A stretch of DNA of 64,000 nt from a virus (Duplodnaviria; Caudoviricetes), in IMG/VR virus record IMGVR_UViG_3300035517_000383, positions 88,103 through 152,102 of that record; one strand, 5' to 3'. The translations under genes were made by a program, and so were the position numbers. The notes beneath the pieces are model-generated. The model saw nothing but the letters and a program-made list of their open reading frames with translations, did not search any database and was not told the origin of the DNA. Position 1 is the stretch's first letter. Every line of letters begins with the position of its first letter. Positions 7,398 through 44,779 of this stretch are shown here, in pieces.

Positions 7398-7431
7398 AAA
7401 TAATACCTCCTAAATATTATTTTATTATTGT

Positions 7432-7671
7432 TTATTTAAACATAGACATAAATGAGTTAAATTCCTGACCAAAATTTAACCCCTGTTGTCCAAAATAGTT
7501 TTCTGCCATTTTATTAAGACTTGAAATATCACCATTCTAAGCTAACGAAACCATTTCATTAATAGTAGGGTCATTTATATTATTTTCTTTTATAATAGAC
7601 CTTACTAGCTGTTCTGGGTTCATACCTCCTTTTAATAATCCTATCAATTGCATTGGATTAACATTCATCAT
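7432..7671 (-). CDS. small NPMQ-type hypothetical protein (cassette gene 2), 79 aa, 1 TAG
   Basis: MMNVNPMQLIGLLKGGMNPEQLV...LA*NGD; overlaps stop of upstream gene. Confidence 0.75.
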
Positions 7672-8102
7672 AATGGAAATTCACCACCATTAGGTTTAAT
7701 ATTTTTTTGAAGCTCATTAATTTGAGACTCAATTTTTACAAAACGATTATTAAATTCTTCTAATTGAGAAGAAGTAAGATTACTTATTTCTTCATTTACT
7801 TGATTACTGTTCTCTTTGGGTATATTATTGTAAGGTTCAATTTTATATGCCCAGAATAGAGGATTACCATTCTACATAGATTTAATATACATCAATCCTT
7901 CATTCAAACATAAAGCAACAGATATTCCAGCACCAGTTGGTACATTAGCAACTTCTAAGGTTGAATTTATGTTATATACATTACCTTGTGGCTGAGGAAA
8001 TAAAGGTTGTACGTTTTGCTGCTAAGCTTGAAAATTATAATTTTGCTATTGCGGCACAGCGTTCTAGATTAGCTGTTGATTCGCGTTATAATTATAAGCC
8101 AT
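7668..8102 (-). CDS. Gln/Asn-rich hypothetical protein (cassette gene 1), 144 aa
   Basis: GAGGTG RBS. MAYNYNANQQLI*NAVPQ*QNYNFQA*QQNVQP...YIKSM*NG, with TAGs embedded in poly-Gln context. Confidence 0.78.
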
Positions 8103-8160
8103 TATTTATCACCTCGTTTTATCTTATACTTACAAGTGAAAAATAAAATAGATTTTAGAA

Positions 8161-8226
8161 AATAAAAAAGTGATATATAGAAGTTTTTCTCTGTTTTATA
8201 CAAAATTCTATATATCACTTTTATTA
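8161..8226. terminator. long inverted repeat, probable terminator
   Basis: AAAAGTGATATATAGAA ... TTCTATATATCACTTTT stem between the lysis genes and the cassette. Confidence 0.6.
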
Positions 8227-8244
8227 AATTTTTACAATTTTATT

Positions 8245-8622
8245 TTATTTTATAAAAGGCATTAATATTTCAAGTTCTTTTAATGTCAAACCTAATTCAT
8301 TTAATTCATCTGTTGAAAAATATATATCTGGCAAGGAAATATTAAGATTATTTAACTGATTAATTTCTTGATTACATAGGTCAATATATTCTTTCTATAT
8401 TTTACAGCCACCTTTGTCGTCAGTTATAATATTTCCATTATCATCTTTCTCAAAATAATTTTCAATATTTTTAAACAATACATCTTGATAGATTAATTCT
8501 TCTTGTTCTAATGCTTGTTTAATTTTTAAGAATTTATATTGAGTTTGAATATTAAATTTCTTATTAGATAATTTCTCTATAATATATAAAATTGAAGAAA
8601 TTTGGCTAGACTTTATTATCAT
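8245..8622 (-). CDS. hypothetical protein (125 aa, 1 TAG)
   Basis: Frame continues past TAG 8395 to ...LEILMPFIK-TAA. Confidence 0.7.
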
Positions 8623-19121: not shown

Positions 19122-19163
19122 TTAAGGAGAGAGTTCCAATTAAGGAACTCTCTTTTTATTTTT
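19122..19163 (-). terminator. hairpin after tape measure gene
   Basis: GAGAGTTCC-AATTAA-GGAACTCTC inverted repeat. Confidence 0.5.
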
Positions 19164-22100
19164 ATTTAGTTAGTATAACCGAAGTTCCAGTAGGTTTTGA
19201 AACATCTACTATATCTTGTTTAACTCTTTCAATCATTTGGTCTACATCATAATCATCTGAAATATTTTCTACATTAATGTGAATTTCAATAGAGGTATCT
19301 CCAATATTTGAAGATACAGCATTAGATGCATTTGAGGTAGAATTGAGAATTGGAAGATTTGCAAGGAGTTGTGCGGCTTGACCTATACGTTCGGTATCTT
19401 GTGCGGAAAGGAAAGCTTCAGGTTTTTGGGGTGTGCCGTCTACCCAAGCTGGACCTGTATAGTCTACAAGACCGCCTGTTTTATATGAACTATAAGATGT
19501 CCTTCTATTCAAATAACCGAGAAGACTTGACCATTTGTGGTGACCAACTTGAGATTCTATTGTACCTTCATCGTTAGAGATATAATTATTTTCTCTAGCC
19601 CAATCCACATTTTTTTTAACTTCTTCCTCTGTATCTCCATATATACACAATTTACTATTAGGGTCACACCATCTAAATGACATAGTAGACTCTCCATTTA
19701 TCATATTATTCCATTTGGTCTCTTTTTCTAAAGTCTGTTTTACATCATTATCAAGAGGAAAAGGTCCCATTTGAACTGAGGGAGAATCTACAACTGTATT
19801 TGTATCTTTATTTTTTGCAGAATCTACATAGTCTCCATTTGAAAGTGTGAAACCCTCTGAATGAGCTTGTCTATCAATCTCATCCCTTTCCATATCTGAT
19901 TTAGCAGTATTGTATGCCCAAGTAAACTCCTCTGCTCTACTAAGATTAGACGACAAACTCTCCTTAGTCATACTGTCGTCACTATCTAACCCATAATCCT
20001 TACTTGAACTGGTACTTGTGCTATCTGTTTCAAGAAGTTCATCATATGCTTCTTGTGCTTTAGTGATAGCATCTACTATATCTTTTGTAGATTGTTCTAA
20101 AGATGAAGTTCCGCTATTTGTTGCAGTTTCCGAAACTCTTTCTTGAACAGAATCAATCTCATTTTGTGAAGCCTCTATTTGACTAGTTAAATCAGTATTT
20201 AAAACTTCATCTGCTAACTATTTAGCAGTAAACAAATCTGTCCAAGAATTTATTTGTTCTTCTAGTTTCGCATCTGACCAAGATTCTGTTTCGGTACTAT
20301 TTTCCATCATCCAAGCAATCATATCGTCTGAACTTTTCCAGTTTGAAATTATAGAGACGGCTTCTGCTGTTAAAGATTCTTCATTTAAAGACAATTCCAT
20401 TAGTTCAAGCTATTGTTCATTTTGTTCTTTCTATTCTTCATATTTTTCTTTCATAGTTTCAAGAATATCATCTACTGTATCATCTAATAATTGTTGTCTA
20501 TCATCTTCAATTTCATCTTGTAAACTTAAAATATTGGCTTGGTTTGCTCCAGAAGTGTCTCTTTGTAAGAGAGATAATTTCTTTTCTTTTTGTGCTAAAT
20601 CATCCCACTGGTTTTGTCTATCTCTTAAATCTCTTTCCTTTTGAATTGCATCTTCTAAGGCATCTAAATATTCATCATTTGCGTCTGCTAATGCGTCATA
20701 TTTATCTTTTGCATTATCTATCTCTTCTTGGTATTTTTCCTTTAAAGTAGAAATAACTTCGTCTTCAATTGCAACAGTATTTTTTAAAGCGTCTTCTTGT
20801 AATTTTTTAATTTCATCGGCTCTTTTCTTTTCCTATTCTAAGTTTTCAGTTTGTACATCTTCATATTTCTATAATTGTTGAATTTGTTCTTCAATCCATT
20901 TCTTAAAATCATCAGAGAACTGTGCTGAATTTATAGCTTCATAATTAGCCATCCATGTTTTAGAAATATCATCATAATACACATAGTCAGACGTATCTGA
21001 GCTAAGTTGATAATTAGGATTCATTGCATTAATTTCATCTATTTTAGATTGTAATCCTGAAGTTAATGCTTCCTAAATATTTTGAATACCCTATTTAGCA
21101 ACATTATTTTCTGCTTGTCTATATGCAGATTCTTGTCGTGCGGCAGTGGTATAATCAGAAAGAGCTTCTGCTATATTCGTATCGGCATCTAGGTTATCAA
21201 GAACATCTTTTGCGTTAGATGCGGCATCTGATAAATTGTTGATTGCAGTTGTATAGTTATATAAGTAATCTAAACTATTTTTATATGTATCTGTACCATA
21301 TAATGCTTCATTTAAAGCTTCTAATTTCTCTGTTAATTCTTCTACTTCATCAGATGTATCAGAGATACTATCTCGTGTATCTGTAAATTTATTGTCTATT
21401 TCTTTAAGTGCCGCAAGTCTTTCTGGTTCAGATAATGCTTCCCATAAAGCATCATCATCGTTTATTAAAGAATCGAGATAATCTACTTGTTCAGATAATT
21501 TATCTATATAATCTGATACATCATTACCATTTAAGGAACTTAGAAAATCTTCTACTGTTGTTGTACTTGTTATCTCGGAAGTATCTTTACCCATTAGTGT
21601 AGCTAAATCTTTCCAAACTGAAAGACGGGCATTATCAATGAGTAATAGGTCTTTTTGCAGGTCTGTTTCATTCTACAATCCTATAAGTGCGTCAAGCTGA
21701 GCTTGAATTTTATCCCTTTCTACAGTAAGTTGTTCTTTTGCAGTTGTAATTAAATAATCTTCACTAGTAATCTATTCTTCAATTCCAGTTTGTAAATCAT
21801 CTGTTCTTAATGTTATGCCATCCTCAGTTATATCTACATAATCTTCAATAGACATATTAACTTCTTCTAATGTTTCCGCTAAATCTCTATATGTTGAATA
21901 TTTTATATTTCCATTTTCTAGCTGCTCTTCTACTGCGTCCTAAACATCTTCTGCTGTCTATACTGCGGTATCGTATATAGTTTCCATTGATTCTTTAAAA
22001 CTTTTAACTGCCGTTTCATTATTAAAATTAAATTCAATAGCTAAATCTTGTTTACCTTCGTTAACAACTTTTTCAAAATAATCAGACCAAAATTCTTCAT

Positions 22101-25100
22101 CATAAGTATCTCCAACACTTTCCTCCACAATAGAAAGGAATTGGTCTTTAAGAGAAGTCATTGTGGATAAATCTAGGTCTTGCCAAGCTATATTATTAAA
22201 AATATTGGAAATTGCATTAGCGTCTAACCCTTGTGTTTCTAAGTTCTTAGCAAGTAAACTGTAAAATTCAGTTGCAGATTTTTCAGACACTCCAGAATCA
22301 ATAGCATTACCAACTGCTGTCGTATAAGAGCTTAATTGTTTTGTATTCCATTTTTGAGACTATGATGTAAGAAGTCCATAATTCTTAGCGTCTTCTTGTG
22401 CCGATTTGAGAGATTCCTCAAAACTACCTAATATATCAGCAATAGCATCTTCCTCTACACCAAGTGTTCCTAAAATGTTATTAAGTTTTTCAAGATTGGC
22501 CTCAGAAGTATCTTCGGCTAATGTTTCATAAGCTTTATTAGCTTCACGATTTTCTCCAATTTTTTCAGCTTTTTCTGTTGCGTCTGTGTCTTGAAAATCA
22601 GATAAATAGATAAGAACATTTGATAATATTTCCGCCTCCGCCGCATCTGTATTATCATCGCCATATTTCTCTTTTATTTCGTCTATTGCTGCTTTTACTG
22701 AACTATCGCCTCCATATAGTTCCTCAAGGGCGCTGTTAAGAATATTTTCGGTTAATTGAATAAATTCTCCTTGCTCATTATAGTACCCCAAACCCTCAAC
22801 TGGACCTTTTATAGTAAAGCCTGCTGTACCATATTCATTGGCATATAATTGAATTTTATTTTCATTTTTGGTGTCACTTTCTACTATATCAAATACTTCA
22901 TCGGCATAATTTTTTTCTTGACTTTCAATTTCTCTTGCCTAAACAGCCGCATAAACCAAAGATTCAAGACTAGAAGAATTAGCATTTATTAATTCATATT
23001 CTTCCTTTAAATTATTAATTCTAGCTTGATGCTATTCGTTTAATGCATCTATATACTCTTGATTATATCCTTCTATCTTAGAATAAGTTGTCTCTAAGTC
23101 AGTATATGATGATAATAATTTTAACAAATCTTCCGCGTCTGTTTGATAGAAAAAATCATTTAGAGAAGAATAACCCATATTAGCCACCTAATCTGAAAGG
23201 AGCTTACGTACCCCCTAAAAATTCCCAGAATTTACAAAATCTTTGTATACTACATTTTCATCTTCTGGACCACTTAATGTGTATTCTCCCCTTAATTTAT
23301 CATAAAAGAAATCTAAATCTAAGTTTCTCTAATAATTACTTGATTCCGTATCATTTAGAATGTCAGATAAGGTGTTTTTTATTATTTCTATATCTTCTAG
23401 ATTTTCTTCAATCTATTCATTGTCGAAAAAATCTTCTGCTATGAAAGTGCCTTGTTCAGATAACTTTGATTCTATTTTTGTAGCTGAAAGTCCAATTAAA
23501 GAAGAGATATTTTTAATCTAATCATTTTTCGCATCTGCTTCATTTAACTGAATAGAAGTTTCACCTTGTACTGCGGCGGCCTTTGCAGATATATCAGCTG
23601 ATTCTTTCTATTGCTCTAAAATCCTATCCCATAATGAAGTCTGTACCTATAACTCTCCAGTAACTTCGTTATAATAAGTTACAACTTCTGGATATTGTTC
23701 TTGAATTTCTTCAACTAAAGAATTATAAGTTTCTTGTTCTTCGGTTGTTAATGTTTGTTTTTTATTTAATTCTTCAAAATTCTTTTTGAGCTTTTTCCCA
23801 GAAGTTACAAGATTTTCAGCTTCTTGTGCCGCAGAATCTAAATTATCAGCTAATTCTTTTGCAGCTTCTGCTGATTCTTTTAATGCAGCGGCCTAATTTT
23901 CCCAAATCTCTTCGTCTGATAAAGAATCCTTAGCGGATGCCCATGCATAAATTAGAACGCCTGCTATAGCAGCTCCCACAAGAGCTATTGCAACAGGACC
24001 ACTTAGAACAGTAACAAGACCTGTTATCATTTTCTCTGCTGCAAAAGATATTATAGATGGTAATGCTGATAAAAGCATGGATTTCCAAATTGTACTAAAA
24101 TCAGAACCAGAAATTGCCATCATTAATCCAGTTGTTATTGCTCCAGAAACAGCATTTGATATAGTTGAAGTTAATGGATTAGTTATTTGCTGTGCTCTGT
24201 CAGCTGTATCACGAAGTTTATCTGAATTCTAACCAGTTCTTATTGCTCTCTCAGCCTCTGCCGCACCAGCCTCCTTTATTTTATTAGCTAATTTCTAATA
24301 TTCAGTAATTTGGTCTGCAACTTCTTGCGTAATTTCACCATTTTCTACTTTTGTTTGAAGAGCGTTTTGTAATATATCTCCCCCTAAAAGGTATTCTCTT
24401 TCTAATCCATTAATTGCTTCCTAAATTTCACTAGGCATCTGAGCATATGTAATCAACATATTTGTTGTTTTTGTCTTTAAATTATCAGTAGTTACTCCAG
24501 CATCTTGTAAAGCTGTTTTAAATTTATTAATTGACGTTTCATCATATGTGGGGGTTATATTAAAATTGAGTTTAAATTTTTTTGTAACTTTATTAAGAGT
24601 ATTTTGTATTCTTAACTGTAATTTATTTACTTCTGTCTATATCTATCTAGTTCCTTGTTGAATTCCTTTTATAAAGTTAGTAATAACACTCTTTCCAAGT
24701 GTCATACCTATTAATCCAATAGATATAAGTTGCTTAGCATCTAATGAACTAATTTTTTCAACAAGCTTTGTAATTCCATCTATAGCGTTCTTAAAAGTAT
24801 CACTCTTTAAAAAACTTTGTCTTAATTCTTCCCATGCTACTTTTAATTTATTAAGTTTATTTTCAATTGTATCTTGATATTTTGCAAATTGTTCTTCTGA
24901 TTTTCCTGCGGAATTCTATGCAGTTTCTACTAGTTCCATGGTTCTGTCATAGTCTTCCATTAACTTTATTTTTTAAAGCTATTCGTTAAATAACTTCCCA
25001 TTTGGCTTATAGTTTCCTATAAGAAAAGGTCATATCTTATCTTTTCAGAAATTCTCCACTTCGGGACACTTATCCCTACAAATGACCGTCGAACCTTCAC

Positions 25101-28100
25101 CCTAACGGTGCTTGGATGCTGATTGTCCAATCCTAATAATTTTCAAACTTTCACACTTAAGATTTCTCTTTATGTTGTAGTTTATTAGGCTCTAAGGAGT
25201 TTCCAGCAATTCAAATATTATAGCCTTAATTTAAGCTATGAATCTACTTTGCTGCAAGTAGATTATTTAATATGTTTTTTCCAATAATAATTATGGGTTT
25301 TGTTTCCATTTCTTATTGCCCGTCTTATAAGTGCAGGCTAGCATTTCATTTCTTTTGCCGCCGCAGCAATAGATGGAAAAATTTTAATGATATTTCCCTC
25401 AATATCAATTTGTTCTACAGGTATCATATTTCTGTGACCATTATTCATTGCGTTATTCATATTTTCTGAATGAGAAATGTCTCTTAAATTTGTATAATGA
25501 TTATTCAATTTATTACCATCTATATGGTCTATTTCATTAAAAATTATATTATTAACAAAAGCTTTGTAGACTAAAATATGAGCAGGAATTGTTTTCAATT
25601 CATTATTAATATAAATCGAATAACGTAAGTACCCATCTTTTTTAGGTCTTAGCTTTATTCTTGTATTGGAATTATAAATTTCTCCATTTTCAGAAATATA
25701 ATACTAAGTATTTTCAATCTATCTCCATTGTTTACTGTTTAGTTCTTTCTCTGTAATATATTGTTTAGTAGTATTACTTGTTTTGCGGCCAGCAATATAC
25801 GCTTCTTTTAAGTTTGTAGAAAAATCAACCCATTCTAAATTATTTTTATGATTATTAAGACGATTACCGTCTTTATGATGAACACATGAAAAATTATTAT
25901 CATTACTTAAAAAATATTCTGCAACTAATCTATGAGCTAGTTTATTATAATACTTCCCTTTAATCGTTAACTAATAAGTTCTATAACCTGTTGAATTAAC
26001 ACTCCCTTTTAAATAATGATTTGTTTTTTTGTTAAATAAACGTCCATCATCAAAAATTAGATAGTTTGTTTCCTAATCATTAATTATTATTGTTTTATAC
26101 ATATTATCACCTTCTTATATTTTTCAATAAAGCTCGACTATATAATTTACTATTAGTAATTCTCTTTTAAGTCTGTGAACCTTCACCTTAGCGGTGCTTG
26201 GATGCTGATTATCTATTTTATAGTAACCTATAAATCCAATCATTTTTTAGAACCATCACACTTAAGATTTCTCTTTATGTTGTGGTATAATTGGCTTTAA
26301 GACGTTCCAGCATTTGAAAGAATTGTGTTTTTTTAGGCCGTACACTTCGCCAGCATTTTAACGAGAACCGGCCGCCGTAGTTGCTATCAGTTTTTCCTAT
26401 TATCTTTCAATAATAGCTAGACTATATCATAAGTTAATATTTAATTAACTTCCCACTACTTCGATTTTCTAAAATCTACTCTACTTATAATTTCGATAGT
26501 CGTTGAACGGTTTATTTACTATAGTAAATAAGTTCGCTGCGGATTGTCCAAAATAACACGATATTACCATACCTTAGTCATTACCTTCGCCGCAACTCTT
26601 AGAATTGTTTGGTTGTGTTATTTTTAAGGAGATTCCCGCAATTCAATGGGTTACGTTACCTAGCTTTATTATTTTTTATTTAAGAATTCATCATATTCTG
26701 CTTTTGAAATTTCCCTCCAATAATAACCGTGACTAATGCCGCCAGTTTTCATTGCACGAGAGAGATTCGAGCAATTGTTTAATCCAAGACTTCTTGCAGC
26801 TTCTGAGGTACTAGGAAAAACTTGAATTAAATTCATCTCTAAATCATATTGTCCAGTCAGTTTTGTTTGTTTTGTTTTTGTTTGATAATAACTTTTTATA
26901 ACATTCTCTCTTTGAGAAACATTCTCTAAATTACTTAATCTATTATTGCCTCTGTTAGAATCAATATGATTAATAACATTGATTTTTTCATCTGGGTGGA
27001 AAACCATATAAACAGCTCTATGAGCTTGAATTTCTTGTCGATTTCCATCTAAATCGTTATATGTCCACCTAATATAACCACTATTTTTATTCCTACTACC
27101 AAAAGTTATCTTTCCAGTCTGTAAATTTTTAATTCTACCCATATTGGATACTTCATATTTACTATTTTGTAAAGGTTTCCATTCTTCCTCTTCTAATTCT
27201 TCTGATGTTAATTTCTCAGTTATTTTATGTTCAACTGGATTAATAATTTTATTAAGATTTTCTTCTTGGCTTACCCATTCTAAATTATCTAAGGCATTAT
27301 TTCTTGGACACCCATCTTTATGATGAACAATAGGTTTGTTTTCAGGGTTTGGAATAAATAATCGCGCCATTAATTGATGTTTATAAATGCCTATCGTTTC
27401 TCCGTCAATTTCAAGAGTAAATCTTATATACCCTTGGTTTATTGCACCTTGTGCAATTCTATGCGTATTTTCATTATATAAATCTCCATTCTTAAATAAA
27501 AAATACTGTGTTTCCTTTCCATTAATTATGACTGGTTTTCCTTCAACCATTTTTATATCACTCCTAGCTATAATATTTAGTAAAGATTTTCCTTTACTAA
27601 TAATATTATATCACAAAATATTATTAAAGTCAATATTTTAAAAATGTTTTTCTTGTGATACAAGCATATTTTTAAAAATGGAATGGTATCCGATAACGCT
27701 ATGTATTGCGGTCAAGTGTATTCCATTTAGCACTCAACTCTAAAAATACATCATCTAAGTCTCTAAATTGTCCTGTGGTATCTTTTAATGAAATACCTAC
27801 AGATTTTAACGCAGTATCTACGTCATTATAATCTAAGTCGTCAAATTCTGAATCAGAGGCCGAGACATTTTCCTTTAATTCTGTGAATCTGGCGATTATT
27901 GTTTTCATTCGTTTTATGTTCCTTTATAAAGTCGCAATTTTTATAAAGACCCAATAGGGTTTTCTTTATGTTACCATAAAGACCAGACTATATCTTCATC
28001 TTATTTTTAAAATAAGAGTCTCCCATTTCGAGGTCATTCACTTACCTCTATCGGCATTTCAGCCGTTAGTCTTTGAACCTTTAATTAGGGAATTAGTATA

Positions 28101-31100
28101 ATTTAGTTTCTTATTATATAAATACCAATTATACCTTCCTTTTATTACTTGGCTGCTGATTATCTTGTTGTAGTATAATTATACGATACCATAAGACTTC
28201 CCAGCAATTAAGGAGATTTCAAATATATTTCACAATATATTAGGGTTAATGATTAGCCGTACCAATGTTTTCCTTTTTATTCAGATGGTTCGTTATTCCA
28301 TCCCGTTTATTAAACTGCTATAGGCTTTCCCTATAGAATAGACTATATCTTCTTCCTTTTCTCTAAAAGGAAGTATAATACTTCGGTATCACTTGATACC
28401 TATCAGAGCCAATCCTGATAGTCGTTGGACGTTTTACTTAGAATTCTAAGCAACTTCGCTGCGAGTTATCCAATCTCTTACTTTTTTACTTTACCAAGCT
28501 GATTAGACTTGCCGCCGCCCTATCACTAAGGCGGTTTAGTAGTAAAAGCTCTAAGGATTTTCTCGTCAATTCATTATATTCTACTATAATAATTGCTTAT
28601 TATAGACCCCGACTTAAAAATAAGTTATTGAATATTTTTTCTTCATAGTCGTCTTTTGTTTCCTTCTAATTGATTGTCTTAAAATTCGTGCGTCTATTTC
28701 TGGATATAATTTTGTTAAGTTATTTATTTCATCATAATTAAAATATAATTTAATATTTTCATTTGATAACATATATTGAGTTTGTCTTTCTTTCTCGAAT
28801 TTGTCATCTTTATCTGTGTTAATAATAGGATTTTCGATTATTTTTTCAGCAACAGGACTTTTTCCTTCTCTTTCTGTTGGAAAAAAATGATTATCTGATA
28901 TTAAATCCCACTGCACTTCGATTTCCTTTCCACTTTCAATAAGATAACCGTTAAAAGAGTACTTTTCTATTTTATTAGTAGCCTCTTTATAATGACCATT
29001 TAATTCTGCTTTAACTTCATCTATTTTTATATATTTAGTTTTATATGAAGTTTTGTTTTTATAGTTTAAAATCCAATTTAAGGCATCTGTCGAGATAGGA
29101 TATTCTTCATACCAGAAAATACAATCCTTGTGTGTTACTCTTTGACCAGAAAGAACATTAAAGATACATCCTCTTGAAAAATTATTATCCTTGCAGAATT
29201 GTGTTAAATTATTAAAAACTTTTGTTATATTTTTCTTTAAATCATAGCAAACAATATTTTTTAAATTTACACCTCTTAAATTATTCTCATTATAGTAATT
29301 TGATTGGTCACTGTTTGATGTCGCCAAATTTTTATTATAAAAATGAGGATTTGGAATTTTATAATATTCCAAATAGTATTTTTCAAGCCATGATAATTCA
29401 TTCCCATCCTTAGCGGCGGCCAAATAATGAACAGAAAAATTTTCTCTACCAAATTTTTTGAAAGCTTTTTGCAATTCTACTCCACTACCCTTATAACCAT
29501 GCCAATAGAATAGCTAATTAGAATTTACTTTTCCAATATACATCATTCCATTAATTTCATTTCTTACATAATAAATATAACCATAATCCATTTTATTTTT
29601 GCCTCCTGTAGTTTTAATCTGCGGTTTATCCGCTCACAGGATAAGTAAAAATAGAAAAATCCACATCTAATACTTTGAAACCAAAAACGAATCAAATTCT
29701 TATTTTTATAGACAAGGGGCCTCCTACGTTGTCTCAATCATTTGTGTTAAGAACGCAGAAGTTGTTTCAAAGCTCATACCTGCCGAGTTAGCAATCGCTT
29801 ATAAAAATGTCTATTTTAGACATTTAGACTATATCTTTTTCAAATATCACTTCGGAATATTTATCCCTACTCTCTGTCGAGATAGTCGTTGAGCTTTAGT
29901 TTAAGATAATTATTTAAATTCTTTATTTCCCAATAAGGAACTTCAATTAAAGGTATATTGTTAGCTAGACAATATTCTCTTTTTATAGTATCTCTTCTTT
30001 TCTAATCTTCTATTGTGCCTAAATAAGCATCATTTACCGTATAATAATGTTGTTGTCCTTGAACTTCAATTAAAATTTCTTTTTTATCTTTTGTAAAAAC
30101 ACAAAAATCAAAACTAAAAGATTTTAAATCTTCATATCTTTTTTGAAAAACAAAATCATATCCATTGTTAATTAAAAAATTTCTTACTTTCTATTCTAAT
30201 AGTGACATTTTAGAATAGCATTTTGGACAACCTCTTCCAAGTTCAGAAATCCTTTTAGAAAAAACAAAACCACAATTATGTTTTATTAAAGATTTATTAT
30301 TTGTTCCAGTAAACTATAGTAATTCATATTCATTATTTCCAACTTGATTTAAAAATTCTTGACCCTGTTTAAAATCGAATTTATTATAGACTTTAAAACA
30401 ATTGGGACATATTTTACCATCAAAATTTCCTCGAACTTTTTTTTCAAAAATATGGCCGCATCTTTTACATTTAAATTTAGAATAGTCATTAGTACCTTTC
30501 CATTCTAACAATTCAAGATAACCTTTTTTCAGTTCTTTTTGTATATGATTATAGATTTTGTTTTTATCTTTTTCACAGTTACTACAAAAAAATTCCTTCC
30601 GTCCTATTATTACAGCTTCAATATTATTAATTATTTCAATCTTGCCGCACTTATTGCATTTAATTTTACAGGACTTTCTCAATCCTTGATAGTTTAATAA
30701 AACAAAATCTGAATTTGGAAATAACAATTCTAATCGTTCTTGTAATCTCTCCTTATTCCATCTTGAATATGGTTTATAGCATTTAGAACATAATGTTATT
30801 TTAGTTAATAAATTTCTTGCATTTTTATAATTATAAATTTCACCACATTCTATACATTTATATTTGATAGAAGATTTTTCACCATTAAATTCTAAAATTT
30901 CTATTTTATTTTTATTAAATACTCTTTTTAATGTTTCTACAAAATCATACATATTTTTTCTCCTTTTATCTTAAACTCTTAGCTGCTGATTATTCATTAT
31001 TTAGTACTTAGGTTAGCAATTCCATATACCATACTATTACTTTTTTCTACTTTCGTAACCATTATGGTGTAATAGTCATTAGAATGTTCCAGCAATTCAA

Positions 31101-32826
31101 TATTTTAAACGCCGATTGACGCTGTTTTACTCATAGCATAAGCAATATCTTCAACACTAGCAGCGGCATTAGCAGCAAGCTCAGAGTAAACATCTGTTAC
31201 GTGAGAGCCTTCTTCCATTTCTAATTTAAACCCGCGCAAGGCCGCCGTCATTTCAGAAGTGGCTGTACTAAAATCTAGACCAGCCAAAGTAGCAAGTTTC
31301 ATTGTGTCTTCTGTAAGTGATAAAGCTTCATTTGTATCAAGGCCTTGTTGGTAGAATAAAGCAGAAGCTTCAATAACGCTTTTAGTTTCCTGTCCTAAAT
31401 TTTTTGCCATATCGGCATAATCACTATAACTATCCCACATTTCTGATACAGAATAATCAGTAACCATTGCAATGGATGCAAAAGCACTATCTAATTCTTT
31501 TACGTCCTAAAATGTTTCTTGTATAGCTTGTTTTACTAGTCTCCATGCAGACCCAATTGAAAGTATTTGTTTTACAGTGTTTTGTAAATTACTAAATGCG
31601 TTGTTAACATTTTCCTAAGCTTCTGCCCATTCTAAGTTTGCCTAAACTGTGTCATGTGCGGCACCTCTAACGTTTTCCTGAGCCTCTACATTTCTGTCTA
31701 GTTGCTAATTAAAGTTCTCAACATTCTATCCAGCTAATGCCATTGCAGAGGACAAAGTACTTTCCAATTGTTGTGTAATCTATTCAACTTGTTGTAAATT
31801 CTAAGTTAAAGACTAAACATCACTATTATTAACGAGATTTTGTCCTGCTTCACTTAGTTCAAATTCACCTTGTGCATTACTTTGGCCAAGAACCATTGAA
31901 TTTCTTGCTCTAGTAATTTGTCCTTTAATACCACTTTCTGTTGCAGCATTAGTCATTGCATTTAAATCTCTAGTAAAGTCCTCTTGGAGTTCATCTGTAC
32001 TTGTAATAGCAACTCCATATTTTTTCATTTCTGCTTGTAGTCTTGCAACAGCATCAGCCGCAGTTTTGCCGCTATTTCCAATTTCTTTTAATACCTTAGA
32101 ATACTCTTCTGTTAATGCAGACTAAACATTGGATGCTTCTACCGTCCTATTAGCAGTTACTCCAGTACCACTTCTTAAGTCTGTTCCTCCGTGAGTACCC
32201 CTTCTGTCAGTTGCGGCATAAGTATATTTATTAGCATCAACAGTTACATTCTCTGCGTATGATTGAGCATTTGCACTTTTAGCAACTTGTTTACCAATGC
32301 TTTTTCTTGCGGCTTCTTCTTTTGCTTGACCGACCTTTTTAATTGCTGCTTCAAGCTGTTCTTGATTTTTAATTTCACCAGTAATAGATTTAATTTCTTT
32401 ATCGTTTAGTTTTAAACTTTTAGCTTGTTCAGTCAAACTATCTTTAGCTGTCTTAACTAAATCTTCTTGTTTACTGTTTAGATTGTCAAGCTAGGTTCTA
32501 TATTTCTGAACCTCAGCGGCATTTACATTGAAATTACCAGCTTGATTAACTTGTCTTAATCCAACCTAAATTTTAGCAATAACTGTATCAAGTTTATCAA
32601 ATTGTTTACCAAAATTTTGCACGTCTTTGCTTCCAGAAAATCCTTTTTGTACATGAGCAAGAAGTTCTTGCACCATTTTATCTGCCGAAGCAATATCTTT
32701 ATCTACTTGAGTAAACATACTATTCTATGCGCCAGCCTATGACATAGCCTGACGAACTTGTTTTAAGGCATTAAGTATATTACTAACATCTAAATTACCT
32801 TTTATAGTATAATTTCTATCTGCCAA
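19162..32826 (-). CDS. tail tape measure protein, about 2624 aa, 7 exons (32826-31119, 29797-29715, 28272-28256, 27909-27693, 26387-26361, 25254-25234, 24963-19162)
   Basis: TTG start with GAGGTG RBS. Spliced core reads AMSKTA/SIANSAGMSFETTSAFLTQMIETT*EAP/ENIGTA/MKTIIARF...LDRNT*RY/IATTAAGSR/QQSRFIA/LMEDYDRT. Exon sum 7875 nt is a multiple of 3. C-terminal YKTGGLVDYTGPAWVDG motif. Confidence 0.85.
24964..25233 (-). mobile_element. group I intron TMP-I6, ORF-less (270 nt)
   Basis: U|...G boundaries, P1 AUAGCU/GGCUAU, AAUUGCUGGAA and AAUCAGCA core elements. Confidence 0.8.
25255..26360 (-). mobile_element. group I intron TMP-I5 with HNH gene near its 3' end
   Basis: Core UGCUGGAA, AAUCAGCA, CAGACU, AUAUAGUC; boundaries restore GSR/QQS. 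Confidence 0.8.
25263..26102 (-). CDS. double-HNH homing endonuclease (279 aa, several TAG)
   Basis: HRLVAEYF..VHHKDGNRLNN, HILVYKAF..IDHIDGNKLNN, C-terminal F.SIAAAAK (NUMOD1-like). Confidence 0.8.
26669..27550 (-). CDS. double-HNH homing endonuclease (293 aa, no TAG)
   Basis: VHHKDGCPRNN..NLEW, INHIDSNRGNN..NLE, FPSTSEAAR. Confidence 0.88.
   Translation of the reverse strand: MVEGKPVIINGKETQYFLFKNGDLYNENTHRIAQGAINQGYIRFTLEIDGETIGIYKHQLMARLFIPNPENKPIVHHKDGCPRNNALDNLEWVSQEENLNKIINPVEHKITEKLTSEELEEEEWKPLQNSKYEVSNMGRIKNLQTGKITFGSRNKNSGYIRWTYNDLDGNRQEIQAHRAVYMVFHPDEKINVINHIDSNRGNNRLSNLENVSQRENVIKSYYQTKTKQTKLTGQYDLEMNLIQVFPSTSEAARSLGLNNCSNLSRAMKTGGISHGYYWREISKAEYDEFLNKK
27605..27633 (-). promoter_or_regulatory. 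intron-internal sigmaA-type promoter for the HNH gene
   Basis: TTGACT-17 nt-TATAAT with TG extension, followed by a hairpin and AGGAG RBS. Confidence 0.8.
27910..28255 (-). mobile_element. group I intron TMP-I3, ORF-less (346 nt)
   Basis: AAUUGCUGGG, AAUCAGCAG, AAAGACUA, AAGAUAUAGUC; ends ...AAAACG. Confidence 0.8.
28273..29714 (-). mobile_element. group I intron TMP-I2 with GIY-YIG gene upstream of the core
   Basis: Core at about 28300-28570 (CAACGACUA, AAGAUAUAGUC); boundaries restore EAP/ENIG. Confidence 0.78.
28614..29591 (-). CDS. GIY-YIG homing endonuclease (325 aa, 1 TAG)
   Basis: GGAGG RBS; MDYGYIYYVRNEINGMMYIGK..YKGSG..E..Y..FYN. Confidence 0.85.
29798..31118 (-). mobile_element. 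group I intron TMP-I1 with endonuclease gene
   Basis: P1 and P10 (CAAUCG pairs with exon CGAUUG), AAUUGCUGGAA, CAACGACUA, AAGAUAUAGUC. Confidence 0.82.
29861..30952 (-). CDS. Zn-ribbon repeat + Vsr/DUF559-like PD-(D/E)XK homing endonuclease (363 aa, 4 TAG)
   Basis: Repeated CxxC pairs, then FSFDF..LIEVQGQQHY..*KRRDTIKREYC..LIEVPYW. Confidence 0.8.
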
Positions 32827-35649: not shown

Positions 35650-37047
35650 TTAATAAATTTCTGGATTGTCGATTCCAGTTGTCTCTGCAATTTCGATTTG
35701 TGTAGGTGTATATGTATAACGAGATTTCTGTGGTACAACTCTTGTGCCGCCATGTACGTTATCATCATCTACATCAAACTGTTTCAATTCAATCATAATA
35801 TCATTTGGAGGAGTTAGAACATCAATGCTCATACTAAAAGTTGTTGGGTCGCCCTCTGCTTCTAATGTTAAGCTTGTATCTGATGATACTTGTGCTCTAT
35901 GGATTGTGAATTGATAACGCTGGTCTTTACCTGTTTTCTGGTCACGAATATAGGTTTCACCAACAATTTTATAAGTCTCAGGGAATGTTTCTGCATCAAT
36001 TACCAATGTTTTTCCAAGAATACCATCATCAGTACCCTCCTTGCGTTTTACAGTACGTGACCACTTATAATAAATAGTACCAATTTTAAGTTTAAAAGTA
36101 TCGGAATCAGTTACTCTATCAAAGTTCTTATCATAGTGTTCGTCTGAATCATTGTCCCAACCTTGAATGAAACCTTCGTCAGAAACACTAAGTAAAGGAA
36201 GCATTGTCTTTGCATCATAATAGATTACATAAGAAGAAGTTTGGTCATCACGATAGTATTTAAGTAAATTCTCTTTCTGCTCTTTTGTACTGATAGTAAG
36301 TCCATTTCTATCTTTCACAATGCACTTTTCCATTCTATCAATTACCTCTAAATCATACATTTCAGTTTCAATTGTGCCAAGTTTATTTAACTCATTAATG
36401 TAAGTTAAAATCTTATCACAAACTACCTGTGGCATAGCCTATTGAGAATTTCTTTCTTCTTCATCTGTTGGTATCATTGCTTTTGCATATTCTTCATTAG
36501 AAAGCCAAATTCTTTTAAAATAACCTTTTCTTAATCGTGTTCTTGCTTCTTCAATTTGCGGCTCATCTTCATTATAATTATTCTTCCAGTAAATTGTACT
36601 GTTGCCACCAGTTGAAATGTTTTCTTCGGTTGCGGCCTTAAAAATAATTTCCCATTCTTCATCAGTTAAAGCTGGGGAAGGATAAGCTTTTGTAGAATAA
36701 TGTAACTTTCCATATTTGTTAGCCATATTAATTTTAACAATTGCAGACGTATAAGGAGAAAGCTTGGCTTGAAGTTCTCCGCCCCAAATCATGCTCATAG
36801 AAGCAGGAGAAAACAAAGCATCTTCAAGAGACAAGGTGATTTCCTTACCAAAATTCCAAGTAATTAATTTTTTGTTACCTTTACCACCCTCAGCACTAAC
36901 TTTCTCTGCCGATTTTTCTATTGTAGAAACCTTTAAAGTATCAAGAAGAAGGACTGGTGTATAGAATTCTTCGTCGCCCACTGTCGTAATACTGTAAAAA
37001 ACTACGTCAGCCACTTCTTTAATACCATATTTTTGGAATAAGTTCAT
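35650..37047 (-). CDS. tail-tube-like paralog 4 (465 aa, 1 TAG)
   Basis: MNLFQKYGIKEVADV...FPETYKIVGETY...TLEAEGDPTTF; two track ORFs joined at TAG 36439. Confidence 0.75.
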
Positions 37048-37060
37048 TTAATTCACCTCT

Positions 37061-37459
37061 TTAATTTGTTTCTTTTATCTACAAAATAATTTCATCATCA
37101 GAAGTATTTATTACTATGTTCTCTGGTGAAATTATTTTAGATGTAGATTTAATTTGTAATTCTCTTTGCTATCCCGTAGGCTCACTCTTTACACCATCAA
37201 CTAAATAATATTCAATTTGCGGCTAGTAAACTTTATAATAAAGTTTTACTACTAAATTTGATTCATCAATTAAACTATTATTACTTACTGTAATAGATGT
37301 AATATTAGATATTGGATTAGCCTCGTTATCATCTAAATAATACACCTGATTATCTTCAGGACTTACGATTTCTATCTTTGTATATGTATTATATTGCTTA
37401 CCTTCGTTATACCAAGATTTTGTTATTACTGGAATATGTTCTGGAGTATCATCACTCAG
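37061..37459 (-). other. 132-codon open frame without a canonical start, overlapping the stop of paralog 3
   Basis: Open (3 TAG) from CTG 37459 to TAA 37061; fills the gap between genes. Confidence 0.5.
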
Positions 37460-39708
37460 TCAGACCCATCAATATCTTCATATGTTGGGTCTGTGGGCAT
37501 CACCCCATCACTAGGAACTATTTCAGTACTACCACTAGCATAATTGTCGTACTTCTTAGTAGAAACATCGTACTGAGTAAGTTTCATCATTACACCATCC
37601 TCTCTACGTAATACTTTCAGATTCATAGTGAAAGTTGTTGGGTCACCTGCTGCTTCTAGTGTTAAATTAGTATCACTACTCATTTTACAAAGTGGAATCT
37701 CAAACTAAAGTCTTTGGTCTTTACCATTATCTCTCGCACGAGCATAAGTTTCTCCCACTAAACGATAGGTACCGGGATAATGAATTGCATCTACAATTAC
37801 CTAATGTCCAAGTGTTGTATATTCAGGCGCACGACTACGAGTCCATTTATAATAAACCTCATACTGTTTAATTACACGAAGATTTCCTTGAATAATTTGC
37901 CCATTCTTCCTATAATATTCATCAGTATTTGGCTCATAAGGTTTCATTGTTTTGGGGTCAATAAATACTGTTATTTCAGATTGAGCATATTCTGGCATAT
38001 AACGATAATTACCAAGACGAATATTACTATCAGTATTGATACAAAACGTCTGACTAGCCTTACATTTTTCCATTCTATCTAAATAATAAACATCTTCAAT
38101 ACCGCTGTTAATAGGATAAATTAAATCTTGTGGAGGAACATTGTTATTATTCCAGTCAGAAATAATATAGAAAGTACCAACTTTAACTCTTGTTATATAA
38201 GTGCTATTAATATTACTTAATGCTGTTGGAACAGACCAGTCAAGATTTAAATAAAAATCAATTTTTGAACCATATTGTTCGTAGAACCAACCATAACTTT
38301 GCTCTGCAACTTCTTGATTTTTTAGCTTATCATATGAAAAAATTTCTTTATCACTTGATTTATCCCAAGAGTCTGTAGATTCATTATGAACCGTCTCGTA
38401 CAACCCTTGTCTAGCAATCATAATTTCTTTATTAATATTGTCTTCTGGTACTCTAAAACGTACACTTGCATTTTCAATATAATAGCAATCTTGCTCTCCT
38501 TCTAAAGAAGTCATTTTCAAATCCGTTTTATTCCAAAGATAGCTGTAAATTCTGTCATTCGCATCAGCACAATAAATATTGTTTTCACCCAATTCTTGAT
38601 AATAACATTGTTCATCATTATCTGTTTTTGGTGCAAACTTATACGTTTTATAATCAAAATCTCCAAAAGCATCAATTATTATTTCTGCTTTTTCTGGACG
38701 TTTTTTATTTACCCATTTGTTTAGTTGAAGTTCTATTTCAGAATATTTCCAAAGAGGTTCTTCATCGTCTTCGTTTTCAAAAATCTCTTTTCCTAAAGGA
38801 CAAATTGATGAGGTACCTTCTAATTCTCCAGTTCCACTCTTCTTAAGATATTTATAAACCCCATCATTTTCAACATAACGAATAAGCTTAATTTCTCCAT
38901 CACATGGACATTCAAAAATTACATAACCTTCTTCTAAGTAACTATTGATTATATCTAAGCAAGAAATCATATCATCATTATTAATAACAGAATCTATTAA
39001 ACTATCTTTTTCATTCAAACTAAAATAAGAGTTTGAATTTTCTTCATCCTCAATTAAACTCAAAGATTGTCTTATCTTAGAAACAATAGTTGCTGTTGAT
39101 GGATGAGAAGAATCCTGTCCCAAAAGTCCATTTTGTGCGGCCTTAAGCAATTTTGTATAAGCATTCTTTACTAAATCATTATTCTTAATATATTTATTAC
39201 CATTAGTATCTATAAAAACACCAATATTATCAAAATTATAAGTCCAAAGTAAAGAATTTTCTTCTTCATCATAAATTTTCACAAAAAGAGACTCATAACC
39301 CGTAATAATATTGCTGGAAATTTCCGCTAAAGAAACAACTTCCTTCTTAAGATATAGTGTTCTTCCATATCTATCCTTTGGATATACATAAGGATTCCAA
39401 ACACCGTAAATCTTAGAATTCTTTGTGCCAAATTTTCCTCCCCACATTAAACTTTGACTTGCAGGAGTGTAAAGAGCATCTTCCAAAGTAACAGAAATTT
39501 CCTTACCGTAATCCCACATAATAAGCTCTGGATTGCCCAAGCCGCCGCGAGCAGAAGTCTGCTCGGCGGTTTGTTCAACTGTAGAGACTTTTAATGTGTC
39601 AAAGTATAACACTGGAACATATATTTCATCGTCATTTTTATCAAGTTCAATAGCATAAAGCGTTACATCTGCAACTTCTTTAATACCATATTGGTCAAAT
39701 ATGTTCAC
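37456..39708 (-). CDS. tail-tube-like paralog 3 (750 aa, 2 TAG)
   Basis: NIFDQYGIKEVADV...YPGTYRLVGETY..KDQRL*FEIP..TLEAAGDPTTF. Confidence 0.78.
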
Positions 39709-41692: not shown

Positions 41693-44600
41693 TTAATATT
41701 CAGTTGCTCCGATATAAATTTCTTCATCTTCACTATCAGCACTTACCTTAAAGAGTTCAGCATCATCAAGTAGATTCAAGTTCTCAGTATCCTTAACCAT
41801 TGTAGAACCATCATTCTCTTCCTCATTTTCAACAACATTGTACTGAATGAATCTCATCATTACACCATCATCTGGACGAAGAACAGTACCATTTAAATCA
41901 AACCAATTTTCTTATACAGATTATTAATCTGTTCTCTATATTTCTATAGAAGTTGAGACTATATCTTCACATTTTTCTGTGATTGCCACTTCGAATTTAT
42001 TTAAACTCTACACCGCTACATTCATCACGGTTAGTCGTTGAACCTTAATCTAAATTCTTAGATTCTTGGTTGCTGATTGCCCAATTTTAATAATTTTCAA
42101 ACATTCACGTTTAGAATTACTTCTTACGTTGTAGTTTATTAAACTCTAAGGGTTTTCCAGCAATTAAGCAATTTTTACCGCGGCATTTGATAAAATGTTT
42201 ACCGCGGGGTCTCCATCAGCTTCAAGTGTAATTGTCTGTTCTGAGCCCACCTTGAACTGAGGAATAACAAACTGGAATCTCTCATCCTCACCAGTTTCCT
42301 TAGAACGTACAAATGTATCACCTACAATCTTGTATGTGCCGGGGAACTTATCAGCAGAGATTTCAATCATATGACCAATAGACTGACCTTCATAAGCTAC
42401 AGAACGAGTAAATTTATAGAAAATTTCTCCCTCTGCGATTGGAGTTCCGTCTGCATAAGGCTCCATTGTATTGGGGTCATAGAATACAGCCTGTGCAGTT
42501 TTATCTGCCTCAGTAGGAGTTCCGTTGCTATTGCCAGCAGGAACAATAAAGCTTCTTTTTGCAATAACTTTTTCCATTCTGTCAATTGTCTTAGCTTCCT
42601 TAACACCATTTCTAAAGTCTGCACCCTCGTAACTACCAAACATAGCACTCATTGACGCAGGAGTAAATAGAGCATCTTCAAGACTTACTGTAATTTCCTT
42701 ACCATAATCCCAACCAATAAGATTTGCGTTGCCGCGGCCACCAGTTGCATAAACTTCTTCAGCAGTCTGCTCAATAGTGGAAATCTTTAATGTATCGAGG
42801 AATAATACAGGAATATAATGATTTGTCTTTTTCTTAGTCTTATGAACCTTTAGGTTCTTAACTGTGCAAGTTGCTTCAAAAGTTTCATCATTAACTGTAA
42901 TATCTGTAGTATGAATAAGACCATTTCTTACTAAAGCTTTAGTACGAGAATCTGCAACATAGCCGTTCTCATTAATCATCCATGCAATTCTATCTACGTC
43001 TCTTGAACCATGACGATTTACAACAAAGATAAGACCCTTATTACCAATTACTACGAGAGCAAGCCACTCGGTTTTCTTAAATACCTTATCCTGATAATAG
43101 AGAGTATTACCTTTCTTATCTTCGAATGAGAATACACCATTTTCATCAGAACTTAAACGCTTATAGTTTTTATTATGAAGTAAATAGATATATGCACCTG
43201 CCGCAACATCAATTGCTCCATCTACTCTTACATAAACAGCTCTATTTGATTCGCCGCCGTTATAATTAACTCTAATATCTTGGTCAATAGCCTTTTCATT
43301 ATAAGCAATTTCATTTAATGCATCAAGTACATTATCAAGAGGATAAGTATCAGAAGGAGATGTTACTTCCAATTCTGAACCATTTGCAGTGTACTCATAT
43401 TTTGCATTATAATCAATATCTTCCTTACCATACTTAGGAATCGGATTCTGACTTACATCATTCATGCTATCAGTTACTTTGTAGCCACCGAAAATAGAAT
43501 TAACACCTGCTAATCCATTAGTTTCACTAGCGTCAAGAACTTTCTTCTTCTGTCTTAAAGCGTCAATAGCATCATTAATACTATAATGCTCATCTTTACC
43601 CCACATGGTAACTGTAGCAATTGCCTTATCAACGCCTTTATTTTTCATTGCCCATTTCATATAAGGTTCTTTAATAGTTGCTGTAGTAGCAGGATAATCC
43701 TTAACAAAAGGAACTATAGAACCAGAAGCCTTTACAAAATCGCCGCCGAGGAAATAAGGATTGAAATATCCCATTTCATCTTCTACAACTAACTCTGCAT
43801 AATCTTCATAAACAACATCATAAGCCTTAGCTTGGAATGTCTGAGTTAAATTCTTAATAGTTTCATTAATTTCAGAAATATCATAAGTATTCTCAGTAAA
43901 TTTACCATCTAATCCTACTACAACAATTTTCTCTGTTGAGTTAGGAGCGGCTGCAAAATTATCATTAAAAGTAATTTCACCAAAAATAGAATCTGCACCT
44001 GAGAACTGATAACGTACACCAGTCTTACTAATCAAATTCTGATTTTTAGCAAAAAGCATAAGAACTTGCTGAGCATAAGAATATTCATGAGTACCAACAA
44101 TTCTCTTTTCATCAGGAACAGTAGAATCGTCATTACTATAAACACCTTTTTCAGAATCTTCTTTGTTGGAAGCTGTAATACCTGTTAAAGTAATTTTTAC
44201 AGTATATGTATAAACTCTCTTAGTTGCTGGTTCAGTTTCCTCATCTGTTGCCGCATCTTCATCAACTACATCTTCCCAAGTTTCATCTAAATATTTATAA
44301 TTTGCTGTTGCAGAATCTTTATTAACGGTATAATATTCATCAAGAATTAAACTAGAAATTTCAGTTTTAGTCTTACTATTATATATAATAGGTTCATCTA
44401 AATCGTACTGTTCAATTTCATCTCCAAGCTTACTATCTTCGGGGAAAGTTAATCCCTTTTGATAGTGGTCTGTAATTCTTGTTTCAGTTTTAAAAGTACC
44501 TTCATAAACTTCTGTAAGAGCAATTTCATCATCACAGTCATAATTAGTGCCAGTAATTAAATCTGCATCTGTAAATACATAAGCCTCAAAACCATCTTCT

Positions 44601-44779
44601 GCGCCCATTCCTCTTTCTAAAGGATATACAGTTCTTAACTCAACTGCACCTTTAAGAATTGAGGCAACACTAATGGTTCTCTGAGACTCATAAGTCTCTT
44701 CTTTCTTTTCTATACGATAAAAAGTTACGTCAGCGACTTCCTTAATACCATATTTTTCAAAAAGGTTCTCTGTAGCCAT
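41693..44779 (-). CDS. probable major tail (tube) protein, 929 aa; exons 44779-42201 and 41903-41693
   Basis: NLFEKYGIKEVADV. Spliced GDPAV/FDLNGTVLRPDDGVMM matches paralog GDPTTFTMNLKVLRREDGVMM. No TAG. Confidence 0.75.
41904..42200 (-). mobile_element. ORF-less group I intron (297 nt)
   Basis: P1 CCGCGGU/GCCGCGG, AAUUGCUGGAA, CAACGACUA, AAGAUAUAGUC, terminal G. Confidence 0.85.

Follow-up and report, generated by a model that had tools for sequence, protein, structure and literature searches.

How a phage could express a tape measure protein (TMP) gene whose best conserved part lies scattered, in pieces as short as 17 nt, over a span of 6155 nt is the question raised by positions 88,103 to 152,102 of the IMG/VR virus record IMGVR_UViG_3300035517_000383. 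This stretch of 64,000 nt, analysed as a whole and called the window below, comes from an uncultured, siphovirus-like phage of the Caudoviricetes with a genome of ~152 kb in which TAG is recoded to Gln. We think it highly probable that the pieces are exons separated by six independent, mobile, self-splicing group I introns (IA2-like), which have piled up in the only strongly conserved block of the TMP, the PF10145 core, and that the array is tolerated selfish DNA and not a regulatory device.

All genes of the region lie on the minus strand, as do the features given below unless another sign is shown, and long genes appear there once TAG is read as Gln. In this reading a frame of 573 codons (31105-32826) and one of 1932 codons (19162-24960) are recognizable as the two ends of a TP901-type TMP, with a Dit gene directly downstream. 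The PF10145 (PhageMin_Tail) profile matches exon 1 with 49.3 bits over profile positions 2-106 (cut-off 33.2), and a 72-codon piece at 27693-27908, belonging to exon 4, carries the match on over profile positions 151-191. To map the exons, residues 560-810 of the intron-less homolog P0004 were aligned to the DNA with a dynamic-programming protein-to-DNA program of our own, which allows three intron phases and has a soft preference for U before an intron and G at its end. This independent spliced alignment placed six introns at borders identical to those that an earlier note on this DNA had read from the letters, and so confirmed its exon map to the nucleotide. Exon 1 (31119-32826, 1708 nt, 13 in-frame TAG) aligns with P0004 residues 1-649 and is followed by intron I1 (31118-29798, 1321 nt, phase 1), exon 2 (29715-29797, 83 nt, ..IANSAGMSFETTSAFLTQMIETTQEAP), I2 (29714-28273, 1442 nt), the micro-exon 3 (28256-28272, 17 nt, encoding ENIGT and 2 nt of an Ala codon), I3 (28255-27910, 346 nt), exon 4 (27693-27909, 217 nt), I4 (27692-26388, 1305 nt), the micro-exon 5 (26361-26387, 27 nt, IATTAAGSR), I5 (26360-25255, 1106 nt), the micro-exon 6 (25234-25254, 21 nt, QQSRFIA), I6 (25233-24964, 270 nt) and exon 7 (19162-24963, 5802 nt including the stop, 28 TAG), which aligns with P0004 residues 769-2633. 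The five internal exons thus make up 365 nt of the span. Joined in silico, the seven exons form a coding sequence (CDS) of 7875 nt and 2624 aa with 43 in-frame TAG and, with TAG as Gln, no internal stop, which bears out the claim that excision rebuilds the tape-measure core in frame.

The joined peptide matches that of homologs in which the same sites are uninterrupted. Public data hold more than 100 such homologs of ~2630 aa, with ~70% identity to P0001 residues 400-573, the query, and all those inspected carry the run TASIA(S/N)SAGM.FETTSAFLTQMIETTQEAPENIGTAMKTIIARF...RYIATIAAGSRQQSRFIAMME. Exon 2 is 89% and exon 4 85-88% identical to homologs, and exon 5 reads IATIAAGSR in them. The segments ENIGTA, IATTAAGSR and QQSRFIA, on whose presence in homologs the earlier note had staked its reading, occur in all homologs inspected as ENIGTA, IAT(I/T)AAGSR and QQSRFIA, and every micro-exon peptide is covered by them. 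Recoding, also claimed in that note, is seen in the alignment, where TAG stands opposite conserved Gln in TTQEAP and NxQRY, and in the genome, which has a tRNA with anticodon CTA that is likely the TAG suppressor. This tRNA (ARAGORN label 'Pyl') lies outside the window at C1:27510-27603, clustered with tRNA-Leu, Met, Ile and Lys.

The distribution of introns among relatives shows both how dispensable and how localized they are. With the exon-4 peptide as query we retrieved 80 related viral contigs (the exon-1 protein as query found no related loci). About 61 of them have an uninterrupted TMP core, and the other 19 carry insertions: between one and nine introns per locus, at no fewer than 14 sites (P0004 codons 574, 608, 648, 668, 676, 678, 680, 681, 685, 755, 761, 764, 768 and 771), nearly all bordered by U and G. 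A 1448-nt insertion of L028 at codon 764 has neither the U nor the G border and was left out of this count. Conservation was measured as pairwise BLASTP identity per position to P0004 among 70 distinct homologs. Taken per 100 residues, a fraction of 0.64-0.76 of the homologs share the P0004 residue over TMP residues 501-800, as against 0.06-0.3 over most of the rest of the protein, and all 14 insertion sites fall in local windows with an identity fraction of 0.70-0.84. Rfam matches in the relatives fall within predicted introns, and none occur in the intron-less loci L006 and L029. I1, I2, I4, I5 and I6 are common to contigs from other samples (L004, L005, L016 and L017), orthologs occupy the I2 site in nine loci, and the I3 junction is identical in L004 and L005. 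Some relatives are more densely interrupted than the window itself. L016:4247-11203 (identical in L017) has nine introns and exons of 12, 17, 18, 9 and 21 nt, with three Rfam-positive ribozymes head to tail at 7064-7981 of L016; L025:2324-8945 has eight introns and includes an 8-nt exon. The stretch that forms the 17-nt exon of the window is subdivided in L004, L005 and L025 into 8- and 9-nt or 21-nt exons, the split in L004 and L005 being 8 + 9 nt; placement by eye replaced that of the aligner for these two tiny exons in L004 and for the start of L005, which is truncated.

A cultured phage may have a similar arrangement. In Lactococcus phage AM2 (L083, KY554769.1), a 125-kb siphovirus, the 9.6-kb TMP gene is annotated in two pieces (locus 7001-8545), separated by an I6-like intron core and a gene for a 'zinc-ribbon-containing protein'. 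Judged by its sequence, this locus probably contains a TMP intron that the annotation overlooks, and the phage, being an isolate, is open to testing.

Four of the six insertions are group I introns by the criterion of the Rfam covariance model RF00028, for which we used a cut-off of 50 bits: I2 (66.7 bits), I3 (76.2), I4 (61.7) and I5 (50.3) all score above it and align to the full model. Their architectures differ. In I2 the open reading frame (ORF) lies between the 5' splice site and the guide, with the ribozyme core at 28318-28627; I3 has no ORF; in I4 the ORF is inside a long-range P1 and the core at 26398-26694; and in I5 the core is at the 5' end (26115-26376), the ORF follows P9, and a hairpin spans the 3' splice site. 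In I1 the ORF sits in the P6 loop, and I6 has none. All six introns end in G (omega-G), and U precedes five of them (I1, I2, I4, I5 and I6), where it is able to wobble-pair with a guide G just before P2/P3. The cores of I5 and I6 are 72% identical over 144 nt. The six introns are otherwise mostly unrelated in sequence, which argues for separate arrivals and against tandem duplication.

Each intron also has, just upstream of P2/P3, a guide complementary, with wobble pairs allowed, to the junction of the exons as ligated. A scan over whole introns gave no discrimination in these long, AU-rich sequences; the search was therefore limited to the 60 nt before P4, and 5000 random junctions from the same CDS served as the null. 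In I1 the guide consists of CAAUCG (P10, 6 bp) and GCGUU (P1, 5 bp) at intron nt 1-11; in I5 of UGCUG (P10, 5 bp) and GCGA (P1, 4 bp); and in I6 of AUUAA (P10, 5 bp) and GGCUAU (P1, 6 bp). In these three introns, where adjacent P10 and P1 add up to 9-11 bp, few random junctions score as well (9/5000 for I1, 40/5000 for I5 and 7/5000 for I6). The I4 guide, GCUA-G followed by GUAACGU (P10 4 bp, P1 7 bp), is equalled by 466/5000. The I3 guide is UCAUU-A followed by ACC (P10 5 bp, UCAUU/AAUGA; P1 3 bp), and that of I2 is GGGG, just before the P2 GNRA hairpin, with a P1 of 4 bp and a weak P10.

The guide pairings co-vary with synonymous exon changes among relatives. In I1, P1 reads AGCGU/GCGUU in the window and AGCAU/GUGCU in a relative, and P3 changes from AAAUAUU/GAUAUUU to AAUGUUC/GAACAUU; compensatory changes in these two helices occur in L004, L016 and L025. 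The P1 of I4, which reaches across a 1-kb ORF, is GCGUUAU/GUAACGU in the window and GAGAUAU/GUAUCUU in L005, two pairs having changed on both sides. At position -4 of P1, U-A of the window is C-G in a relative for I5, and A-U is C-G for I6. The P10 of I5 changes from CAGCA/UGCUG to UAGCA/UGCUA, so that a synonymous change of an exon Gln codon from CAG to UAG is matched by G to A in the guide. In L020 and L027, compensatory changes keep the pairing of I5 in P1, P10 and the 3' hairpin, and the consensus fold of the I6 family contains eight pairs changed on both sides. Compensatory changes at the exact junctions point to selection on RNA structure.

The hairpin at the end of I5 is formed by the last 9 nt of the intron and nt 6-14 of exon 6 (AAUCUACUU/AAGUAGAUU, window positions 25241-25264), and its loop holds the omega-G and the P10 bases CAGCA. 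The orthologs in L020 and L027 retain this helix in other letters (GUGAC/GUCAC) because their Ser-Arg codons differ.

A further mark of mobile introns is that all four intron ORFs match homing-endonuclease families of Pfam or PHROG. The I4 ORF (26669-27550, 293 aa, no TAG) is an HNH endonuclease with HNH_3 (PF13392, 64.3 bits, cut-off 24.8), NUMOD4 and NUMOD1, and matches PHROG 59 (E 2e-55); the I5 ORF (25263-26102, 279 aa, five TAG) is another, with HNH_3 (43.6 bits, same cut-off), NUMOD1 and a match to PHROG 59 (E 1.6e-58), and the two genes are ~72% identical. The I1 ORF (29861-30952, 363 aa, four TAG), whose 3' end overlaps P6'-P7.2, has zinc ribbons and a Vsr-like DUF2726 region and matches PHROG 559, 9084 and 7140 (homing or intron-encoded nuclease, E 1e-44 to 1e-12). 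The I2 ORF (28614-29591, 325 aa, one TAG) has a GIY-YIG-type N-terminus, with the motif YIYYV...MYIGK read from the sequence, and matches PHROG 314 'homing endonuclease' (E 7.8e-16). The four endonuclease ORFs of the earlier note are thus upheld at the level of PHROG families, and for the two HNH genes at that of Pfam; the Vsr-like domain (residues 273-344 against PF10881, 22.4 bits) stays under the Pfam cut-off of 24.7, and the GIY-YIG ORF has neither a Pfam match nor a PDB sequence match. Three of the ORFs (I1, I2 and I5) need read-through of their TAG codons. The I4 product could precede the action of the suppressor tRNA, its ORF being the only one free of TAG and standing downstream of the best sigma-70-like site of the region, TTGACT-17-TATAAT with TG (27605-27633). 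This is the only 11/12 match there, and the total of promoter-like sites in the region does not exceed that in shuffles, so that a single consensus match is weak evidence.

From these sequence features we infer splicing as follows. Each ribozyme would fold on the pre-mRNA independently of its neighbours, take up guanosine, cut at P1 and ligate the exons with the help of P10, and the product would be one mRNA, translated with the suppressor tRNA of the phage. The pile-up itself would be caused by homing into residues 500-800, the only stretch of this otherwise fast-evolving protein common to co-infecting relatives: as is usual in homing, introns would gather in the conserved block because their endonucleases need targets that such relatives share. 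The ORF-less introns I3 and I6, which lie 17 and 21 nt downstream of endonuclease-bearing introns, would probably travel with these neighbours by co-conversion.

Several observations weigh against this account. Two introns fall short of the Rfam criterion: I6 scores 20.6 bits, and I1, which its ORF splits, has no full-length match, with a weak one (15.1 bits) in the 3' half and none in the 5' half. The test with group I models that the earlier note had proposed therefore supports I2-I5 and leaves I1 and I6 below the cut-off. In these same two introns P3, P4-P6, P7 and P9 are present, whereas the P8 hairpin, normally part of the group I core, is missing from the segment that joins P3' to J8/7. 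The guides of I2 and I3 are indistinguishable from random junctions in the 5000-junction test, and the pairings of I2 are short (P1 3-4 bp, P10 2 bp). I3 departs from the rule at its 5' splice site, where the last exon base is a C that faces A in P1 (GGC before the intron and UAA within it, opposite UUA-A-CC), with no U-G pair. Finally, the hitch-hiking and 'conserved target' accounts are deduced solely from how the introns are distributed.

The group I identity of I1 and I6 is suggested by their P1/P10 guide pairings and compensatory changes, and for I6 also by its likeness to known phage introns: its P3-P6 core shares 85.7% identity over 105 nt with the I-TwoI-bearing intron of Twort nrdE, and the core is ~78% identical over 95 nt to a stretch between two TMP fragments of phage ICP1. 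The I1 orthologs in L004, L016 and L025 likewise have no P8, yet their P3 co-varies. The window I6 has no P7.1 either, an element kept in its orthologs of L020, L026 and L027. As for I3, a U at -1 with an omega-G would shift the frame, and the junction after C is the only in-frame one with a terminal G; the same C-A pair is found in L004:7618-7999 and L005:2974-3355.

A more far-reaching interpretation extends that of independent selfish introns: here the array is one linked homing unit used in competition between related phages. The endonucleases of I1, I2, I4 and I5 would cut the intron-less TMP alleles of co-infecting relatives, co-conversion would carry over the ORF-less introns at a distance of 17-21 nt, and with every further insertion a neighbouring nuclease would lose its recognition site, in an arms race whose end state would be arrays of six to nine introns with exons of 8-27 nt. 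The ORF-less intron at site 771 fits co-conversion: in the window, L005, L016/L017, L020, L023 and L027 it has the endonuclease intron of site 764 21 nt upstream, the exception being L026, which has the site-771 intron without that neighbour. We put the scenario of a linked homing unit forward tentatively, as possible with all its steps but rather doubtful. If it were true, the exons would be almost fully constrained by RNA pairing (P10, the 3'-splice-site hairpin and P1) in addition to coding, and a side product would be naturally minimized ribozymes, such as the P8-less I1 and I6 and the C-A pair of I3.

An alternative put forward in the earlier note is that neighbouring ribozymes depend on each other, so that a fixed splicing order, or skipped isoforms without the 27- or 21-nt exon, would time tail assembly at the RNA level. 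There is precedent for skipping, since group I exon skipping is documented for Twort orf142 and for the SIOphi polymerase gene (PMC11878797; PMC3073962). All but one nt of the 21-nt exon 6 is engaged in pairing, the cores of I5 and I6 are alike, and in the 8-9-nt exons of relatives P10 and P1 must overlap. In the window, however, the footprints are separate. Over the micro-exons of 17-27 nt, the P10 of the upstream intron takes the first 2-6 nt and the P1 of the downstream one the last 3-7 nt. The 27-nt exon is used by the P10 of I4 at nt 2-5 and by the P1 of I5 at nt 22-27; the 21-nt exon by the P10 of I5 (nt 1-5), its 3' hairpin (nt 6-14) and the P1 of I6 (nt 16-21); and of the 17-nt exon just the final 3-6 nt take part, in pairing with I3. 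No splicing order is forced by footprints that do not overlap, and the claim that shared micro-exons imply ordered splicing is not sustained. Pairing also disfavours skipping: the P10 of I4 forms 4 bp with exon 5 as against 1 with exon 6, and that of I5 forms 5 bp with exon 6 as against 2 with exon 7. Moreover, every homolog inspected retains the peptides that skipping would remove, IATxAAGSR and QQSRFIA, and about three quarters of the relatives have no intron here, which makes the array dispensable. We consider a coupled array improbable, and the idea of a checkpoint on tail assembly is speculation.

Still less credible is a decaying gene, in which at least one intron would be dead for splicing and the phage defective or its TMP a pseudogene. 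The missing P8 and low Rfam scores of I1 and I6 and the non-canonical 5' splice site of I3 are what such decay might look like. The P8-less introns and the C-ended exon nevertheless recur in several independent contigs, with compensatory changes in P1, P3 and other helices that indicate selection on structure, the seven exons stay in frame without a stop over 7875 nt, and the endonuclease ORFs are intact; we judge this explanation very unlikely. An artefact (a chimera of the assembly, or gene fragments translated separately with free-standing endonuclease genes among them) would suit a metagenome-assembled record in which gene callers give only fragments, but it is contradicted to the point of near-certainty by exons of 17-27 nt that cannot be separate genes, by the ribozyme cores that flank each exon, and by an identical layout, with shared introns, in contigs from other samples, which rules out misassembly.

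The remainder of the genome is also rich in introns. Further RF00028 matches lie in the window at 41934-42265 (-, 78.7 bits), 56375-56693 (-, 58.9 bits) and 56830-56931 (-, 23.6 bits), and outside it at C1:72093-72333 (+, 58.8 bits) and C1:78453-78680 (+, 74 bits); one of these additional matches is between virion-structural-protein ORFs and two are in the terminase region. Counting I1 and I6, the 152-kb genome has at least ten introns. Three large neighbouring ORFs (35650-37047, 37456-39708 and 42164-44779, all -) match PHROG 2729 'virion structural protein' and seem to be paralogs that encode tail or head-decoration proteins.

Independent selfish introns in a conserved block have several implications. 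An essential gene is here missed by gene finders, which return fragments under table 11 and for which exons of 17-27 nt are invisible even with TAG read as Gln. In this clade the TMP gene, whose product sets the length of the tail, tolerates six to nine ribozymes in a row. The locus and its relatives form a natural test set for the minimum exon length that can serve the P10 of one intron and the P1 of the next, for interference between adjacent ribozymes, for the dispensability in nature of P8 and of the U-G splice-site pair, and for the way homing endonucleases shape hot spots. Three details stand out: I1 and I6 do without P8, I3 has a conserved C-A pair at its 5' splice site, and a hairpin that co-varies displays the distant 3' splice site of I5.

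Tape measure genes are known hosts of group I introns, and the earlier note, for which phage introns are mostly described in genes of DNA metabolism and in terminase genes, is out of date on this point, TMP introns having been published (PMC2504315; PMC10448857). The TMP gene of Vibrio phage ICP1 is split into four exons by three introns, as established by RNA-seq and reverse-transcription PCR (Barth et al., 2023; PMC10448857). These introns are of group I type with HNH endonucleases, whose content varies among isolates while the junctions are fixed, and the same study calls the TMP gene 'frequently interrupted' (PMC10448857). Our locus resembles that of ICP1 in its group I-type introns with HNH endonucleases in the TMP, splicing being proven for ICP1 and predicted from sequence here. 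It differs in number, with six introns in the window and up to nine in relatives as against three, and ICP1 is a standard-code myovirus. When our TMP core was aligned to the ICP1 locus with introns allowed, every intron placed was spurious, the proteins being too divergent for insertion sites to be compared.

Prophages of the Bacillus cereus group carry IA1/IA2 introns (TMP-IVS1/2/3) at three TMP sites, some with GIY-YIG or HNH genes, and there P1/P10 adapt different introns to one site and similar introns to different sites (Tourasse and Kolsto, 2008; PMC2504315). They share with our locus the presence of group I introns at several sites of a conserved TMP gene, but in that paper's examples a single prophage has at most two of the three sites filled, far apart, and neither micro-exon arrays nor recoding are found there. 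Staphylococcus phage Twort offers a second tail structural gene with several group I introns close together: its tail tube gene orf142 has three and undergoes exon skipping (Landthaler and Shub, 1999, cited by PMC11878797 and PMC3073962), and 47% of transcripts of the SIOphi polymerase gene are skipped (PMC11878797; PMC3073962). The three introns of orf142 are similar to each other, unlike the six mostly unrelated ones here, and the I6-like Twort intron lies in nrdE, not in orf142.

Intron density of this order has been reported for other uncultured phages. Zeta-group crAss-like gut phages have up to 14 group I introns per genome and stop-codon recoding (PMC7886860), and Jug phages have a mean of 18.5 introns per genome, 37 of 76 predicted introns being confirmed in metatranscriptomes (PMC12880540). 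Like our phage, these are uncultured and rich in group I introns, with core genes in several pieces; in the passages covered, the gene named as most fragmented is a capsid gene with five pieces, and no micro-exon array is mentioned. They belong to other lineages. Genome size, recoding and intron density had led us to consider a crAss-like phage of the zeta group here as well, but this identity was rejected because the module of the window combines portal, Dit and a TP901-type TMP. Outside viruses, the cox1 gene of fungal mitochondria has many group I introns with endonucleases in its most conserved part and very short exons, but there the genomes are organellar and splicing is often assisted by proteins (maturases).

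In the open-access literature we found no paper on six or more introns, or on arrays of 8-27-nt exons, in one phage gene. The comparison reveals no new mechanism, because there are published cases of introns in tape measure genes, of phage genes with several introns and of gut phages dense in introns. It is well supported that the locus is a very dense instance of a known selfish-element pile-up in a known kind of host gene, with ordinary group I self-splicing and homing as the presumed mechanism.

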